A stretch of 63,050 nt of DNA, filler included, from Reclinomonas americana ATCC 50394 (lineage: Eukaryota), in the NCBI GenBank assembly GCA_048213135.1. It is 28 parts of 28 records of this genome, joined end to end, with 100 filler letters (N's around TTAATTAATTAA, not from the genome) between each part and the next. Parts side by side here need not be neighbours in the genome. Positions count along the whole stretch, not along the records: positions 16,030 to 18,398 come from AFZH01024915.1; 27 more parts are not named here. One strand, given 5' to 3'. Numbering within the stretch: position 1 is the first letter of the stretch; each line of letters starts with the position of its first letter. The notes beneath the pieces were generated by a model. The model ran no database searches. It saw only the letters and a list, made by a program, of their open reading frames with translations, and was not told the origin of the DNA. A program made the translations under genes and the position numbers. This document shows positions 2,506-57,101 of the stretch, piece by piece.

Positions 2506-3320
2506 TGCACACAGTGCACGCAACGATGCTTGTTGACAGGCAAGTAGAGCGCCAGAGTGTCGCGCGGAATGCTCAACTCAAACACCGCCACTTGCTCACG
2601 CGAGGCCGCCAACTCGGCCGTCACACTCGGAGCATTCGCGAAAAAGTCGACAAAGTGCCTGTGCGCTTCTCTGTCAGCACGTCACACACACACACGATGC
2701 TGCTCTTTATGTACACGCAACTCGTTGCTGCGTTTCTCCGTCTCTTCTCCTCCTCCTCCTCCATCGTCATCATTTGCTTGTGTTTTCCTCGCATTCTCCC
2801 GCACTCGGAACACCGCCAGTCGCACTCCTCCCGAGCCACGCACCACCAGTGCCTCCACACTCACCACACCATTCGCCTCATCTGCGCCACAGTACAGCCA
2901 CTGTGCACTGCGGAGCGCGCGCACATGTGTGTCAGAGGAGAGTGAGAGTGAGGGAGGCAGAGAGAGAGAGAGAATGCAACTCGTCTTCGTCCTCGCGACC
3001 TGCAAACAGCACTGTGCTTGCTGCTGCTGCAGTGTCGTCGTTGTGTGTTGCAAGAGGCCATGCGCGCACACACAGGCCGACTGTGGTCGGTCGAGGTGGC
3101 ATGCACAGACAGAAGCGATTGGAGGGCGACAGAAGCAGAGTCTCGCCATTGGACGAGGAGGAGGAGTGGCGTAGAGCGCTCTCTGCCACGCGCACTGGCA
3201 GCATCCTCTCTTGCTCTCTCTCCCTTCGCCCTCACTCTGTGATTGTTGGTTGATTGATTGATGGAAACATTTTGTGTACATTTTTCTGCGTCTTGGTTGT
3301 GTTCTTTTCTCTTTCTTCCC

Positions 3321-4906
3321 TCAGTAGTCCTGTGTGCGTGAGAGGAGAGAGTGAGCGAGTGCATGGCGAGCGTGAGCAGCAACAACAGCGATGCGACGAA
3401 ACTGGTGCCAACAGCAGAGCTGTGCCGCACAAGACCCACTTGATCGGCTTGTCGGTTGTTCTCAAACCGGCAGTGAAGACGTACGTTGCGCCACGCCTGC
3501 ATAGAAGCACGTGTGTGTGTAAGAAAACACGAAAAAGGAGGAGAAGAGCGGGATTGAGTATCACGCAACATGGTGGTCACGTAGACTGGGCACTCGAAGA
3601 CGCCCTTTTGCTCCTTCTTGTCGACAGTGACGGCCTTGACCCACATCACCGGCAACGTCGGGAACAGATCCTTCAGCGTGGCGTCCTTCAAGCTGTTCGA
3701 TTGCTGCTCGCACGCACAAGAAGGTGTGAGTGCGGTGCAGTGACGACGCCAGACAAACAAGCAAACAAACAAACCTTGTCCCAGCGAGCACCCTGCAGGA
3801 ACAGACCATGCACGTAGGCACCGTCACGCGGTCCGACGCCAATCTCCTCTGCCTCCTTCTTCAACACTTCGGTTTGCAAGCACATGCGATCCAACGGCCA
3901 CTCCTGCCGTCTGGCAGTGGTCTGCATGACGGCCGTCAAGAATCTGCGAGAAGAAAATGAGACACCGGATCACTGCCTCGCGACGGCAGGCGAAAAAAGA
4001 GAGTGGACGCACGACATGGGGTTGAAGAGGCCAGCGAGCCACACACTCTTGGGCATGTTGAGATCGGCGGCCCAGTCCTGGAGGAAGCGAATGCGCTCCA
4101 GCAAATCGGCGAACCACAGGCCGAGCGGCTTGAGACTGGGATACGCGAATTTGGCCCAGGTGCCGGGCACTCTGTCCAGGAACAGCGCGTTGATGACCTC
4201 GTCCATGGCCTCGGAAATGGTGAGCTGACCGAGCAGACCCATCATCAGCTCCTTCAGCGACACCTTGATCGTGCTGAGCAGCAAGTTCATGCGTTCGCAT
4301 TCCTGTCGCGCGCGCGCGAAGTGTGAGACGCAACGCTGGCAACAACAATAACACCGCATGTGATGATGCAAACACACCTGCAACAACACCAGCACGTACG
4401 GCGTGCGCTGCTCGACGCGATTGCCAATTTCCATCATGTCCAGTGGATTGTCGGGCAGGCGAGCTGTAATGTCCTCCACAATGGCCTTGACCTTGGACTC
4501 CTTTGTCTCTCCACCACCACCCGTCGAGCCACCACTCAACTCCATAATCGTACTGCGCAGCGAGAGAATGCAGTGAGCAGCTAAAACTCTCAGTGCGTCC
4601 CCTCACTCGCCAACACGCCTCACCTATACACAAACTCAGACTCGGCAGTCAGGAAGACAATTTCGGCATTGGACGGCAAGCCGAACAACAGCGGCGACTC
4701 CGACGGGAGCTCCTGCTGAATGTACTGCGTGTAGTCCTCGTAGCTCACTGCGCGCAAGAGGGACGACCAGGGAGGGTGAGCACATCCACGTCACACACAC
4801 TCCACAATTCATCACAACGAAACTCGGCGGCGGGCAAATGAAACCGTGTGCCAGCTCAAAGTTGCCGTCGACCAGCTGGTCGGTCATCAGGCCCTCCAGG
4901 TACGAT
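3321..4906 (-). CDS. Axonemal dynein heavy chain, C-terminal part, multi-exon
   Basis: QECERMNLLL, VPGTWAKFAYPSLKPLGLWFADL, SVWLAGLFNP, GAYVHGLFLQGARWD and spliced CPVYVTTMRGATYVFTAGL..KWVLCGTALLLAPDY*. GT-AG introns checked. Confidence 0.95.
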
Positions 4907-16029: not shown

Positions 16030-18398
16030 TGCCACTCAGGAACGACAGAGTGCCGCCGACTTGGAGACCATTGGAGACGGCGACGGGCGATGCCGTAGTC
16101 GGCGGCGCATACACCCGACTGACGCTGTTGATGTACAGACCAGTGCCACTGTCGGCCGCATTGCGGAACAGACCAGTGTCACCGTCGGTGCCGAAAGCGA
16201 AGCCCAAGTCGATGGAATCATTGACCATGGTGGGTGCTCCAGTTGCCGCACGCACCGTGCCCGTGGACAGGAAAGTACCAGCGCCGGCCGCGTACGAGCC
16301 GGCGCCCACGACCATGCGCAGCGGATTGCTGCCGTTGGTGCCAATGTAGGCCTGCGAAAAAGCAATGTGGAGGAGCGTGCGTGTGAGCCAGTGTTGCGAT
16401 CACTTGATGTGCTCACGCGCACGAGCGCGCACGCAACATGCGTGCCACCGACTGTAACACCTCCGTCAAAGGCATTGGCGACATTGACATTGAGCACGTT
16501 GGTGCTCTGCGACAGCGCCGTGCGAGGCGTAGTGGCACCGGCCGCAAGTTGGACCTGGCGAGGACAACAACCGGAGACCTTGGTGAGTATGGAAATACAT
16601 GTTGCTCCACATCACGTCCCCGCCCACCTGTCCACCCTGGACGACCAGCGAGTCGGCGAGTGTCACCGGACCTGCTGCGGCCACCGTCATGCGAGTGGAG
16701 CCGCGAATCTCCAGTGTCACTGGCAGCGTCACTCCCGGTGACGATTCGCCCTTCGAGCATTAAGGTTGCTTGTGAGCAGAGAGGGAAGGGAAGGCAGAGA
16801 AGCGGGCAAGAAGGACAAACCGATTGTCGGAATGCCGCCAATGGCGTGCCGACTGGCGAACCAAAGCGTACGAGCTCGCCGTACACATCAAAATTACCCG
16901 TGAGGACCACCGGATCGGTGGACACCGACGAGGGTACGGTCAGCCGAGATACGCCACCAGACATGAGAGTCAGTGAGGTGCCACCGGAGGCGTTGAAAAG
17001 ACCAGTGTTGCCGAGAGTGTCAAAAGAGAAACCGACATCGCCATTGGCGTTGGCCGGCACACCGCGTGCAGCTCGCACACCACCAATGACGTGCAACGTA
17101 CTCAACGGCGACGCAGTGCCGACGCCGACTCTGTTGTTCGGCGTGGCAGTCACGGTGATGAATCCATTATTGATTTGCGTACCCGAAGAGAAATTATTGT
17201 TCGGGTTCACCAGGAGCCACGTGCCGGACTGCGTGCACATGTGAGCACCAGAGATCTGCAGCAGGATGAAAAAAATGGAAACAAAAACACACGTACCGCA
17301 GTCAACGCCGCAAGTGGCGACGGTGATCCGAGCTGCAAATCGTTCGAGAACAAATTGAAGAATCCCTGAATGATAATGGGACCGGTGGCCGGAATTGTCA
17401 TGCGCTCCTGGCCGCCAACAAAGAGATGCAGCGTGTCGGCGGCACCACTGGTACTTGCTGTCGTGGGGAAGAGTGTGCAGGTGATGAGAACATGACCATG
17501 CAAAGGGCATTGATGCGTGAAAAAATTGGCGCAACAGCGAGTGGCAAACACGCCGGTGGTTCCGTCGCCCACGAACGAGTAGCCGGTGTTGGGCGAAGTG
17601 GTGGACATGGACGGTGCGCCGAGAACGGCTCGAATACCACCATTAACCTCCAGCGATGCAGTGGCGCTGGAGACGGAGCCCACATTCAACTGCATGGTGT
17701 CGTCAGTGACGAAGGGATCGGCTGACACACGGCACAGCAGGCGAACGCAACTGATCCCGTAATGGTCGCCGATCCCGCCACCGCAATGCCACTGGAGATG
17801 GAGACAACATCGGAGGGCGGGATGGTGATGCGCGACGTGCCATCAATTCGCAGACTCAACGTGGATCCCTGCGCACTTGTCGAATCTGCCGCAAGAGTGA
17901 GCACCAGCTGTAGGTAAGCACACAAGAGAGACACACGCAACTCGTGTTGCTCGCAAAGAAACCCGTGTCAATGTCATTGATGAAGGCGTAGCCGGCGTTG
18001 GAGACAGTCGAGGAGGCCGGAACACCGATATTAGCGCGTACCGTGCCGTATACACTGAGTGGCACACTGTCGCCGGAATTACCGACAGAGACGGCTCCGG
18101 AGGTCAGAATGGACAACCGATTGTTCTGACCAATGAACACGCCGCCACTGAATGCATCACCACCATTGACTGCGCCGACGCGAGTCAGTCACCTGGAAAC
18201 AATTGACATGTGTCACCACCACCACCCGCCCACGGAGACGCAACTTTGCAGCTTGTTTCCAGTGGCCGACTGCGCAATGGCCTCGGCAGAGTTGAGATAC
18301 AAGCGACCACGAATATCCGTGTTGCGGTAGTTGACAATGGTGCCAGTGGTCGTGCCGGGGAGTTCGAAGGTCAGGTTGCCGCCGACGTAGAAGAGCAT
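16030..18398 (-). CDS. Spliced protein made of phage/bacterial tail-fibre-like repeats, partial at both ends
   Basis: At least 4 units of V-x-G-x-[VI]RA-x2-G-x-P..G[YF]xF-x2-D-x-DTG[LF]F..L-x-L..R-x-T-[IV]P, plus NRVGVGTASPLSTLHV. Several GT-AG introns. Confidence 0.7.
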
Positions 18399-18498: not shown

Positions 18499-19841
18499 CA
18501 TGTTGGTGACGGCAGCTGTGTTCCATCCGCTAATGTTCTGGTTGAATGACGTCGCCCCCTGGAACATGTTCGACATGTTGGTGACGGCAGCAGTGCTCCA
18601 TCCGCCAATGTTCTGGTTGAATGCCGTCGCTCCGAAGAACATGGCCGCCATGGTGGTGACGGCAGCAGTGTTCCATCCGCCAATGTTCTGACTAAATGCC
18701 GCCGCCGCACGGAACATGCTCGTCATGTTGGTCACCGTCGACACATCCCAGTTCCAGTTGGCTCCTGCGCCCGTCAACGAAGTACAGCCGTAAAACGTGG
18801 CATTTAGGCTGCTGACATTGACAAGATCGGGCGTATCAGTGGCCGTGACTTGCATATTGGCACAACCGTAGAATGCACCGTTCAGGTCGGTGAACGCCAC
18901 ATTGCCCCACTGGCTGATGGTGCTCAGCTTCAGCCGATCACCGCTGTTGTTGAACTTGAGACCCGCAAACTTGCCCACAATCGTCACAGTGTACGTGCCA
19001 CTGGCGGCGTACGTCTTCGTCACCGTACCGGTGGCCACTTGCGAGCTTCCATCGCCCCAAAACACTCTAAAACTGTTGGTCGCGCCGCCAGCCACTGGCA
19101 GCTGCAACTGGTTGCTGGCAGTCCCCGCTTTGCTGGTGTCGAAAACCAAGACATGGCCGACGGTGCGCGCAGTTGTTTCGTCAGCCGCCACCGTCAGCGT
19201 CACCGAGGCCGTGGCCGTGTCGATGCCGTCAGTAGCACGATAGTCAAAGCTCCGCACGACGCCTGCGGTTGGCGCCGTTACGTCCAGCCGCTTGTCGCTG
19301 CGTCGTGTGACAACGATGCCGTCGGCCAGAGTTGCCGTGCTGCCTGTGCTTGGCAGATTGAAGACCGTGCCCCCAAAAGCCGTGTCAATCACCGCCGTGA
19401 CCACCAGACCCACTCCGGTGTCGTTAGCAAGCACATTGACCACCATCGGCACACCCGCGATAATAGTCGCCGCATCCGCCACCGCGAGCACCGCGCGCAC
19501 AGTGACGGGGCGAGTACTCGAAGATGATGTCTCTGCAACAGGGAATGAAACAACGACAATCCATGAGGATAAAGCAGAAGAAGGAAGAAAAGAAGAAGAA
19601 GAAGGAGGAGGAGGAGGAGGAGGAGGAGGAGGAGAAGAGACAGCAGCAGCAGAACAAAATAGGAGGATCTGTGGAGTTCTCTGAGTCATCATCAACCACA
19701 CGCAATCACCACCACCTCACATGCTGCAGAAAACCGAGACTCACCGACAGTGGCGGACTGATGTTGTGGTGTGTGCGGCAGCGCCGACGCGGCAGCGTAG
19801 GCGGTCAGCAGCAGGAGAGAGCTGATCAAGACCCGCCGCAT
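18499..19841 (-). CDS. Secreted Ig/cadherin-like + PKD-like + DUF285 (BspA-type) repeat protein, 3' truncated
   Basis: Signal-peptide exon (ATG 19841, MRRVLISSLLLLTAYAAASA) and intron 19744-19533. Then VNVLAND..SFDYRATDG, VFWGDG..GTYTVTI, ISQWG and 25-aa repeats FNQNIGGWNTAAVTNMSNMF. Confidence 0.85.
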
Positions 19842-23432: not shown

Positions 23433-24734
23433 ACGCCGCGCGACTCGCATCGTCAGTGGGTTGCTGTGGCTTCCAGCAGCGACGGCACCAAGTTGGTGGC
23501 GGCTGTGCGCGACGGTGCGCTGTACACCTCCACCGACTCGGGTGTGACATGGACGGCCCGCGACTCCAATCGACCGTGGGTCGGTGTGGCCTCCAGCAGC
23601 GACGGTGCGAAGCTGGTGGCCGTCGCCCATGGTGGCCAGATCTACACCTCCACCGACTCTGGTGCGACGTGGACGGCACGCGAATCGGCGCGACTGTGGC
23701 GGTCGGTGGCGTCGAGCAGCGACGGATCGAAGCTGGTGGCGGTGGTCGGTAACGACAAGATGTACACGTCGAGCGACGCGGGTGTGACATGGACGGCTCG
23801 CGACTCGAATCGAAACTGGTTTGCGGTGGCCTCCAGCGCCGACGGCACGAAGGTGGTGGCGAGTGTGTACGACGGCCAGATCTACACTCTCAATGTCAGC
23901 GGTAGCTGCTGTGTGCCGAACTGTGCCGGCAAGTCGTGCGGCAGTGACGGTTGCGGCGGATCGTGTGGCACGTGCGGTTCCGGTCAGCAGTGCAATGCAT
24001 CGTTCCAGTGCGAGTGTGTGCCGAACTGCACCGGCAAGTCGTGCGGCAGTGACGGATGCAGCGGATCGTGTGGCACGTGCGGTTCCGGTCAGCAGTGCAA
24101 TGCATCGTTCCAGTGCGAGTGTGCACCGAACTGCACCGGCAAGACGTGCGGCAGTGACGGTTGCGGCGGATCGTGCGGCTCCTGCACCGTCGGCGACTTG
24201 CTCATCTCCGAATACGTCGAGGGCACCAGCAACAACAAGTACCTGGAAATCTACAACAACAGCGCCTCCGCTGCGGACCTCACGAACTACGAATTGAGGC
24301 TGTTCACCAATGGCGCGTCCACTGCAACACAAACTCTGCAGCTGTCGACACTTTCTGGCTTGCCCTCAACATCGTTGGCGTCGGGAGGAATTCTCGTGAT
24401 TCGCAACTCGTCGGCCACACTGACACTGCCGACCGGCGTTACGTCGTATGCGAATAACACGGTCATGGCTTCTTACAACGGCGATGACGCAATCGGCATC
24501 TGGAAGAAGTCTACGTCGGCGTACGTCGACATCTTCGGCGTCATTGGACAGAGACCCAGTACCTCGTGGACTTCCGGCTCATTCACCACGGTCGACAAGA
24601 CGCTGCGCCGCAAGTCGTCTGTCCTCTCGGGCGTCACGACGAATCCATCGACATTCGCGACGCTGGCGACGGAGTGGGATCAGTTCAACGTCGACACTGT
24701 ATCGGGTCTCGGCTCGCACTCGATCACCGGGTAG
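23433..24734 (+). CDS. Intronless bacterial-type mosaic: Asp-box/BNR propeller repeats, three 35-aa Cys repeats and a lamin-tail domain; 5' truncated
   Basis: (VASSSDGxKLVA..YTSTDSGxTW) repeats. CVPNCxGKSCGSDGCxGSCGTC at a 105-bp period. LLISEYVEGTSNNKYLEIYN..NGDDAI..TLRRK..GLGSH. Confidence 0.88.
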   Translation, partial: TPRDSHRQWVAVASSSDGTKLVAAVRDGALYTSTDSGVTWTARDSNRPWVGVASSSDGAKLVAVAHGGQIYTSTDSGATWTARESARLWRSVASSSDGSKLVAVVGNDKMYTSSDAGVTWTARDSNRNWFAVASSADGTKVVASVYDGQIYTLNVSGSCCVPNCAGKSCGSDGCGGSCGTCGSGQQCNASFQCECVPNCTGKSCGSDGCSGSCGTCGSGQQCNASFQCECAPNCTGKTCGSDGCGGSCGSCTVGDLLISEYVEGTSNNKYLEIYNNSASAADLTNYELRLFTNGASTATQTLQLSTLSGLPSTSLASGGILVIRNSSATLTLPTGVTSYANNTVMASYNGDDAIGIWKKSTSAYVDIFGVIGQRPSTSWTSGSFTTVDKTLRRKSSVLSGVTTNPSTFATLATEWDQFNVDTVSGLGSHSITG

Positions 24735-55612: not shown

Positions 55613-57101
55613 GCGCGTCGACATCGACGCCGAGTTCTAGTGGTCCGGGTGAAGCCGGAGCGGCAGTCGGTCTCGGTCGCCGCCGCCACGCTCGGCCGGC
55701 GCACCCTGCAGCCGGACCAGCTCAACGCCCTGCTCTCCGGCAAGTTCATCTCGGCGCTGCGCACCGTCGCCTCCGAGATGACGATGGAGGAGATGCATGA
55801 GAAGCGCGGGACTTACGTCCAGCGCGTCAAGGATGCCGCTGCCGAGGCGCTCGACCAGAACGGCCTCGTGCTGGAATCGGTCGCGCTGACCGATCTCGAC
55901 CAGACCGACCTGCAATATTTCAACCCGTCCAACCGCTTCGACGCCGCAGGTCTGACCCGGATCATCGAGGAGATCGAGGACAAGCGGAAGCTGCGCAACG
56001 ACATCGAGCAGGACTCGATGATCCGCATCCGCACCCGCAATCTCGAAGCCGAGCGCCAGGCGCTCGACATCGAGCGCGAGAGCGAGGCGGCACGGCTGGA
56101 GCAACAGCGCGAGATCGAGATCAAGCGCGCCATGCAGCGCGCCGAGGTCGCCCGCGAGCGCGCCGTCCGCGACACCGAGGCCGAGCAGGCGCAGATCACC
56201 TCGCGCGAGGAGATCGAGAAGTCGCGCATCGCCAATGAGCGCGCCATCAGCGAGGCGCGCATCGCCTCCGAGCGGGACATCCGCCAGCAGGAGATCGCCC
56301 GGACGCAGGCGGTCGAGGAAGCCGAGATCGCGGCGCGCGAGCAGGTCGAAAAGGCGCGCATCGCCAATGAGCAGACGATCAATGCCGCCCGCATCGCCTC
56401 CGAACGCGAGATTCGGCAGAGGGAAATCGAGCGCACCAGGGTGCTGGAGGCCGCCGAGATCGAGGCGCGCGAGGCGACCGAGAAGGCCCGCATCCTGCAG
56501 GAAACCGCGGTGAATGCCGAGCGCATCGCCCGCGAGCAGGAGGTCCGCAACCGCGAGATCGAGCGAACCCGTACGCTCGACCAGGAGGACATTGCGGCGC
56601 GCGAGGCGGTCGAGTCGGCGCGCATCGTTCAGGAAGAGCGCGTGCGTGCGCTCCAGATCGCCCGCAACAGAGCCCTGGACGAGGCCGAGATCGCGGCACG
56701 CGAGGCAGTCGAGAAGGCCCGCATCGCCCAGGAAGACGTGATCACGGCCGACCGGATCGCGCTCGACCAGCGCAAGCGCCTCCTGGAGATCGGGCGCACC
56801 GAGACGGTGGACGCTGCCGAGATCGCCGCCCGCGAAACCGTCGAGAAGGCCAGGATCAGCCAGGAGCGGATCGTCTCGGCCGAGCGCATCCGCCGCGACG
56901 AGGAGGTCCGCAATCTCGAGATCGCCCGCAACCAGGCGATCGACACCGCCGAGATCTCGGCGCGCGAGGCGACGGAAGCCGCCCGCATCGCGCAGGAGAA
57001 GGTCGTGGCGGCCGAGCGCATCGCCGCCGAGCTCGCGACGAAGGAACTGGAAATCCGGCGCAATGCCGATCTCGACGCCGCCGAACTGAAGCGCCGCGAC
57101 G
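55613..57101 (+). CDS. Bacterial flotillin/SPFH (YqiK-like) protein with an expanded coiled-coil repeat, partial
   Basis: AAATLGRRT..GKFISALR..NGLVLESVALTDLDQT..FNPSNRFDAAGLT, followed by EIAARE repeats. High GC, no introns. Confidence 0.9.

Follow-up and report, generated by a model that had tools for sequence, protein, structure and literature searches.

The contig AFZH01024915.1 of the Reclinomonas americana ATCC 50394 genome assembly (GCA_048213135.1) raises the question of whether repeats of the kind found in phage and bacterial tail fibres are carried here by an intron-containing eukaryotic gene and, if so, who owns that gene and what its product would form. The contig was analyzed as positions 16030–18398 of a 63,050-base window, the whole stretch of DNA under study, which joins 28 unlinked contigs, mostly of ~2.3 kb, through spacers that are N runs around TTAATTAATTAA. 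Since positions 16030–18398 are exactly one whole contig (2369 bases, bounded by spacers), the contigs on either side of it in the window do not adjoin it in the genome. We consider it probable that this contig is a fragment of an intron-rich nuclear gene of a microbial eukaryote, called the fibre gene below, which would encode a homotrimeric fibre shaft of a eukaryote-type family.

On the minus strand of the contig, eight predicted GT-AG introns of 56–86 nt can be removed to leave a 600-codon frame without a stop, open at both contig ends (Table 1). The splice model was built from the donor and branch consensus, starting from the recurrence of GTTGCG among donor-like sites, together with the reading frames. 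A splice search that maximised the open frame alone chose spurious introns and was rejected. Five of the eight donors read GTTGCG and six start with GTT, the three other than GTTGCG being GTACGT, GTTTGT and GTGGGC, and a CTSAC-like motif lies upstream of the acceptor in all eight introns. At seven junctions, all but junction 6, the spliced product aligns collinearly across the splice point with relatives that have no interruption at that place; P0048 and P0034 cover junctions 7 and 8, and junctions 2 and 4 are also spanned by P0007. Introns 2 and 4 occupy the same place and phase (phase 1) in the repeat unit, a few residues after T-G-x-F, a place at which units 3 and 4 have no intron. For intron 5, an in-frame alternative acceptor 27 nt upstream (CTGCTGCAG) may be used as the other possible splice site. 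The initial annotation had described the gene as intron-containing, and the eight predicted GT-AG introns, seven of them with bridged junctions, support this; the intron that it had quoted was found at 18244–18170, with its donor after CAAA, a CTGAC and the acceptor CAG/TC.

Table 1 Predicted exons and introns of the fibre gene (window positions)
Feature	Position	Strand	Details
Exon 1	18245..18398	-	Frame open to the contig end; ATG at that end only a putative start
Intron 1	18170..18244	-	75 nt, phase 1, donor GTTGCG, CTGAC 14 nt before CAG; P0003 and P0010 alignments cross the junction
Exon 2	17942..18169	-	Unit 1 core, GTVRANIGVP ... GYAFINDIDTGFF
Intron 2	17886..17941	-	56 nt, phase 1, donor GTTGCG, CTCAC branch-like; collinear with intronless prokaryote-type P0100 and P0007
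Exon 3	17752..17885	-	Strand pair L-x-L..R-I-T-I and spacer
Intron 3	17690..17751	-	62 nt, phase 0, donor GTTGCG, CTGAC; P0024 alignment crosses the junction
Exon 4	17536..17689	-	Unit 2 core, GGIRAVLGAP ... GYSFVGDGTTGVF
Intron 4	17458..17535	-	78 nt, phase 1, donor GTTGCG; junction collinear with P0100 and P0024
Exon 5	17297..17457	-	From splice model and alignments
Intron 5	17229..17296	-	68 nt, phase 0, donor GTACGT, CTCAC; P0024 crosses the junction
Exon 6	16821..17228	-	136 aa, one complete eukaryote-type unit
Intron 6	16751..16820	-	70 nt, phase 0, donor GTTTGT, CTCAC, acceptor AAG
Exon 7	16628..16750	-	From splice model and alignments
Intron 7	16555..16627	-	73 nt, phase 0, donor GTGGGC, ACTCAC; P0048 crosses the junction without a gap
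Exon 8	16438..16554	-	L-N-V-N-V-A-N-A-F-D-G-G, a variant of the NPxNxF segment
Intron 8	16352..16437	-	86 nt, phase 0, donor GTTGCG, CTCAC; P0048 and P0034 cross the junction
Exon 9	16030..16351	-	Unit 4 core, GTVRAATGAP ... GFAFGTDGDTGLF; open to the contig end, no stop

The other contigs of the window include plainly eukaryotic genes (a dynein heavy-chain C-terminal domain, CAP-Gly, Pumilio repeats, eukaryotic L26, WD40 and a DUF285 array) and two contigs that look bacterial, one with an Rv3818-like SCP2/Rieske protein (47398–48243 in contig 46878–48244; E = 1.4e-45) and one with a Band_7 protein (55613–57100 in contig 55613–57101). The assembly therefore comes from a eukaryote, with some bacterial DNA mixed in. 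On contig 2506–4906 (minus strand), the Dynein_C domain of a dynein heavy-chain gene extends over three open reading frames (ORFs) in different frames (E = 6.6e-40, 3.7e-22 and 1.5e-8), and the introns of this gene start with GTTTCG, GTTTGC, GTTTGT and GTTGCG, contain CTCAC or CTGAC, and end in CAG. The donor pattern GTT[GT][CG]N, with T at +3, occurs in both the dynein and the fibre genes, where introns measure about 56–110 nt. A T at +3 of the 5′ splice donor is unusual, and this consensus of the organism is a useful by-product for gene finding. The splice signals of the fibre gene match those of an undoubted eukaryotic gene on another contig of the same assembly, which speaks in favour of the earlier claim that the gene is eukaryotic. 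GC content at third codon positions (GC3) agrees with this comparison: it is 0.67 in the fibre gene and 0.66 in the pooled eukaryote-like ORFs, against 0.90–0.93 in the two bacterial-looking contigs, whose overall GC content is 65–69%. Given the shared T+3 donor and the eukaryote-like GC3, a bacterial or phage origin of the contig is very unlikely.

The same data bear on the reading that the contig is intronless bacterial or phage DNA whose frame breaks are assembly or sequencing errors. The presence of bacterial-looking contigs in the assembly and a module family that is mostly prokaryotic or phage would suit it. However, errors would yield single-base frameshifts and not eight insertions of 56–86 nt that are GT/AG-bounded, share a donor and a branch motif and are without homology, and removing these interruptions makes the protein collinear with intronless relatives. 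With a GC3 that is also unlike that of the bacterial contigs, we regard this reading as close to refuted.

The repeat units of the fibre gene were located with a regular-expression scan of the six frames of the window, which gave four matches to G[YF]xF...TGxF and four to GxxRAxxGxP. All eight lie in pairs on the minus strand of contig 16030–18398 and none elsewhere in the window, against a mean of 0.16 and a maximum of 2 matches in 50 mononucleotide shuffles. The four motif pairs listed in the initial annotation are all present, in the order in which it gave them, and the L-x-L...R strand pair that it placed after each unit is found in all four, the fourth reading L-x-I; the V-x-G start that it gave to the preceding motif holds for three of the units, the fourth having S-T-G instead. 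When the spliced product was compared with the window by tblastn, the internal repeats were significant within the contig (off-diagonal E = 1.6e-8, 4.1e-7, 1.9e-5 and 4.2e-5), and the other 27 contigs gave nothing better than E = 0.9. The conserved parts of the module are a capping loop, V-G-x-G-T-x-x-P-x-x-x-L-x-V, a turn, G-G-[VI]-R-A-x-x-G-x-P, and the motif G-[FY]-x-F-x-x-D-x-x-T-G-x-F with a short strand pair.

Of the four units, one shows the canonical capping-loop motif clearly and the other three have degenerate versions of it, which could indicate a decaying relic, that is, a once-transferred fibre gene that has lost its expression or function. Against such decay, exact removal of all eight introns is needed to keep the 600 codons open, all four units retain the conserved G, R and F positions, and GC3 (0.67) exceeds the GC content at first and second codon positions (0.56). 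A relic therefore seems improbable to us.

Using phmmer, exon 6 was searched against 1.84 billion representatives, which gave 426 matches at E <= 1e-3 and 33 at E <= 1e-10, the best having E values of 4.7e-26 and 1.6e-25 at 38–39% identity. Most matches are long prokaryote-type proteins rich in V-G-I-G-T-x-x-P repeats. Peptidase_S74 (PF13884) ends 5 of the 25 top matches scanned and is present in 5 of 24 matches of a profile search, in keeping with the earlier proposal that the repeats are akin to phage and bacterial fibre modules, several of them S74-ended; in P0017 and P0157, the fibre module G-G-I-R-A-x-x-G-x-P...N-V-G-Y-x-F-x-x-D-G-D-T-G-M-F and S74 stand in one protein. Judged by sequence similarity, the modules of the fibre gene are homologous to prokaryotic and phage fibre proteins. 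A word-index search for longer relatives gave one weak match, P0001; no relative was found when IMG/VR and metagenome contigs were scanned with the single protein of exon 6, or when metagenome contigs were searched with alignment A5. The sole real match in the family libraries was phrog_33377 (function unknown), which matches the last exon (E = 5.6e-6).

One prokaryote-type match, P0100 (527 aa), has two fibre modules of the same kind. Its N-terminus reads F-T-L-V-E-L, which may be prepilin-like; the protein would then join the fibre module to an anchor resembling type IV pilins.

Among the 150 matches listed, one set has no canonical V-G-I-G-T, a longer unit, and a protein that runs into junk. 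The unit of this eukaryote type is ~135 aa long, against ~80 aa in the prokaryote type, and includes an extra L-x-[LIV]-N-P-x-N-x-F-x-x-G segment. Exon 6 contains, in order, L-V-N-P-N-N-N-F, VGVGTASPLSTLHV (the capping-loop motif), GGVRAARGVP, GFSFDTLGNTGLF and the strand pair. In eukaryote-type fragments such as P0003, P0010, P0012, P0019, P0023 and P0024, cysteine- or serine-rich junk appears soon after T-G-[LM]-F or elsewhere, as would be expected if a prokaryotic gene caller had run on into introns; intron positions in the relatives were judged only from where the predicted proteins turn to junk. Of the eukaryote-type fragments, 19 were looked up; each is an unnamed singleton, and each lies on an ENA or Logan contig 0.9–4.3 kb long.

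A phylogenetic tree was built from 40 modules, picked by regular expression from 30 of 178 sequences, with sequences lacking a match left out. Its two sides are separated with a support of 90 in the Shimodaira–Hasegawa-like approximate likelihood ratio test (SH-aLRT): side A holds 17 prokaryote-type rows and the long-branched P0132, and side B holds the window's four modules, 17 eukaryote-type rows and P0030. With moderate confidence, the nearest relatives of the fibre gene would thus be intron-like fragments that form a separate eukaryote-type branch. The fourth module of the window clusters with modules of P0003, P0012, P0023, P0034 and P0089 and not with its own neighbours, which indicates that the module subtypes predate these proteins. 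The window's modules are spread over different sub-branches, which they share with other eukaryote-type fragments, and the gene's description as old fits this pattern. We therefore propose the fibre gene as a putative member of an intron-bearing, eukaryote-type branch of the superfamily that comprises S74 fibres and mosaic adhesive trimer (MAT) fibres, with its own longer module.

Among solved structures, exon 6 alone matched 8ojn_C (E = 0.0026), and profile A3 matched 8ond_A (Bd2133; E = 2.9e-6), 8ojn_C (8.2e-4), 8oml_A (0.0027) and 8ol4_A (0.1), and no other chain. 8OJN is cited in the Bdellovibrio MAT fibre paper (PMC10769870), to which 8oml and 8ol4 are linked by the PDB molecule name that they share with 8ojn. 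That paper describes the tips of Bd3182, Bd2133 and Bd1334 as trimeric beta-helices with intertwined chains, in which capping loops of the form V-G-G/N-pi-x-x-P-x-x-x-L close the edges; the MAT fibre tips are related to the phage T5 fibre and the K1F endosialidase, and the loop motif is reported in MyRF. In exon 6, VGVGTASPLSTL aligns to the loops of 8ojn_C and 8ond_A and agrees with this capping-loop motif.

As a monomer, exon 6 was modelled poorly by AlphaFold2, with a predicted local distance difference test score (pLDDT) of 54.9, few strands and no helix, a result that a chain folding solely as a trimer would be expected to give. Three runs with three copies gave an interaction score from aligned errors (ipSAE) of 0.92, 0.93 and 0.92, whereas the highest-scoring of three controls stayed at 0.00; the partner pLDDT was 88–89, the contact agreement between runs was at least 97%, and about 440 contacts extended over residues 1–135. 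The tightest contacts involve residues 44–54, 66–68 and 77, which are the conserved G-G-V-R-A, G-F-S and L-F positions. In the calibration of the tool, made with two copies of microbial proteins, the mark was reached by 21 of 30 solved same-chain pairs and by 0 of 23 solved single chains; the tool did not take our own alignment as input. Together with the 8ond match, this multimer prediction makes a trimeric beta-helix fibre the best structural reading for the predicted protein, in line with the trimeric filament that the initial annotation had suggested.

Given these results, we propose that the fragment is an internal piece, of at least 600 codons and with both ends missing, of an intron-rich eukaryote-type gene whose product would be a homotrimeric fibre shaft. 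In the predicted assembly, the three chains wind around one another over the full length of a module to form a beta-helix or beta-prism rod, like phage S74-type tail fibres and Bdellovibrio MAT fibres. Every module would lengthen the intertwined beta-helix by one segment that a capping loop closes, and the conserved G, R and F residues would pack on the three-fold axis or interface. By analogy with MAT and phage fibres, binding specificity may reside in a C-terminal tip, on the missing end, which may also carry an S74 chaperone, a domain whose self-cleavage follows a check on trimer formation. The fibre would presumably be secreted or displayed on the surface. The family would be an unannotated eukaryote-type group that branched from prokaryotic or phage fibre modules, and we infer that the gene belongs to the microbial eukaryote making up most of the assembly, in preference to a virus.

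A viral owner would be a virus replicating in the nucleus or an endogenous viral element (a polinton-like virus, a virophage, a mirusvirus or a giant-virus insert), and the gene would then encode a virion attachment fibre with introns spliced by the host. Mirusviruses have many ~80-bp GT-AG introns with a CYSAC or CTGAC branch consensus, up to 50 per gene and enriched in virion genes, according to PMC12768974. The intron density of the fibre contig, 3.4/kb (8 in 2.37 kb), is well above the 0.04–0.65/kb given there for mirusvirus genomes, although these figures are genome-wide averages and the density is 14-fold higher in virion genes; the passages of that paper covered here contain 0 occurrences of fiber or fibre. 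Polinton-like viruses in protist genomes commonly encode phage-like fibres with S74 (PMC12220804), and the introns mentioned in the passages covered are group I only, with no spliceosomal ones.

Viral contigs often carry fibres of the prokaryote-type family, with 441 of the 640 candidate stretches in IMG/VR. Among the 77 IMG/VR loci kept, four (L060, L061, L065 and L070) are giant-virus metagenome-assembled genomes with prokaryote-type V-G-I-G-T fibre proteins, so that the broader family occurs in viruses of eukaryotes as well. In a language-model atlas, which provides a lead only, exon 6 is nearest to unnamed clusters with viral (Uroviricota) members (score 0.94). Other observations speak against a virus: the window protein gave one weak match to the 77 viral loci by tblastn (E = 4.7e-5), the IMG/VR scan with exon 6 gave no relative, and the fibre gene and the eukaryote-like ORFs agree in GC3. 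On balance, we judge viral ownership unlikely, though a serious competitor, and keep the gene of the microbial eukaryote as the preferred explanation.

Several points weigh against this preference. A virus or endogenous element whose transcripts are processed by the host spliceosome would also show host-type intron signals and GC3, and the dynein comparison does not separate a host gene from a nuclear virus, because such a virus would share the host splice signals; in addition, the codon-usage correlation with individual host ORFs is uneven (r = 0.09–0.69). The introns are predictions from genomic sequence and protein alignments, and intron 6 is the least supported, since its junction is bridged by no alignment and alignments end on either side of it. 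A Pfam scan of the nine exons at E <= 1 gave just two chance-level matches and no family covering the module, NCBIfam gave nothing on the exons, and no annotated family of PHROGs covers the module. In the tree, P0132, with its long branch, and P0030 stand on the "wrong" side, P0030 being an 84-aa fragment that is labelled prokaryotic by default, yet junk-ended; the group labels were assigned by us from motifs and the kind of source contig, and the SH-aLRT of 90 is below the tool's star, a moderate support. The trimer score may reflect model memory, because related fibre complexes have already been solved. Finally, the contig holds the fibre gene only, with no flanking gene, start, stop, signal peptide or C-terminal domain on it.

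As for the remainder of the window, the plus-strand ORFs of the fibre contig have no Pfam family, and Rfam and tRNA scans of the whole window found no RNA gene. The contig placed next after it, 18499–19716 (minus strand), encodes a DUF285 repeat array (PF03382, E = 1.2e-54) that is open to the contig end; the ORF also has a run of prolines and a stretch rich in serine upstream of the array. An ORF at 23433–24731 (plus strand) combines BNR/Sortilin-Vps10-like repeats with a lamin tail domain (LTD, E = 1.6e-12). The GC content of contig 45474–46777 is 40%, against 52–69% in all other contigs.

Besides phages, bacteria (in MAT adhesins and contractile injection systems) and protist viruses are known to have trimeric fibres of the phage type; in eukaryotic cells, the known domesticated case is MyRF. 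Literal full-text searching of a limited literature library found no paper on host-encoded, intron-bearing fibre genes in protists. Given that the 19 related fragments looked up are unnamed singletons and that neither Pfam nor NCBIfam has a model for the module, current annotation is blind to the family. For the fibre gene, the predicted exon–intron structure, the homology in sequence and the in silico support for a trimer have been demonstrated. Only tentatively do we extend this to a host-encoded, intron-rich family of phage-derived trimeric fibres in a microbial eukaryote lineage, with its own ~135-aa module and many paralogues; the cell would deploy these fibres on its surface or in an organelle that it ejects, and through them recognise prey, partners or substrates. 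The domestication that the initial annotation had proposed, and the surface filament, prey-capture adhesin or extrusome part that it had suggested for the protist, are likewise tentative; the term protist follows from the eukaryotic genes and short introns seen on other contigs. If such a host family exists, the S74-type fibre fold would have been domesticated twice and independently, the first case being MyRF, and the family would be a eukaryotic counterpart of the Bdellovibrio MAT repertoire. A diversified family with host-type introns would show that eukaryotic gene pools, or those of viruses of the eukaryotic nucleus, acquired this adhesive architecture and developed it further, and it would be a candidate for unexplained protist surface filaments or capture structures.

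Among known systems, the S74-ended phage and bacterial tail fibres (P0017, P0157, P0008, P0014, P0020 and P0026) share 38–54% core identity with exon 6, and P0017 and P0157 resemble the fibre gene in the module ...V-G-x-x-T-x-x-P-x-S-x-L-x-V-x-G-G-I-R-A-x-x-G-x-P...N-x-G-Y-x-F-x-x-D-G-D-T-G-M-F. Unlike the fibre gene, they have no introns, a unit of ~80 aa and a place on the opposite side of the main tree split. Structures of S74-ended fibres cited in PMC10769870 are the T5 L-shaped fibre (4UW8) and the K1F endosialidase (3GW6). The fibres of polinton-like viruses and virophages are likewise phage-like and trimer-forming, occur in protist assemblies and often have S74, as described in PMC12220804; their domains given there (laminin G_3, collagen, adenovirus-fibre, PTR and BppL_N) differ from the module here, in which Pfam found none of them.

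The MAT fibres of Bdellovibrio bacteriovorus (Bd2133 8OND, Bd3182, 8OJN/8OML/8OL4; PMC10769870) resemble the fibre gene in profile-level similarity over the beta-helix unit and capping loop, and both would have a modular repeated shaft and, by prediction, a homotrimer intertwined along its length. The PDB alignments with MAT chains do not include the G-G-[VI]-R-A...D-x-x-T-G-x-F or N-P-x-N-x-F segments of the fibre gene. According to that paper, MAT proteins are intronless bacterial proteins; besides a signal peptide, they have a conserved N-terminal domain (~130 aa) and either a defined tip or an S74 end, none of which is seen on the internal fragment here. MyRF resembles the fibre gene, as proposed here, in being a eukaryotic gene with a phage-derived trimerising beta-helix, the stalk and the S74/ICA domain being those of MyRF itself; its domains (Ndt80-type DNA-binding and ICA) had no Pfam match in any of the nine exons of this incomplete fragment. 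In contrast to MyRF, which is a transcription factor with one short stalk, the fibre gene carries a long array of fibre modules.

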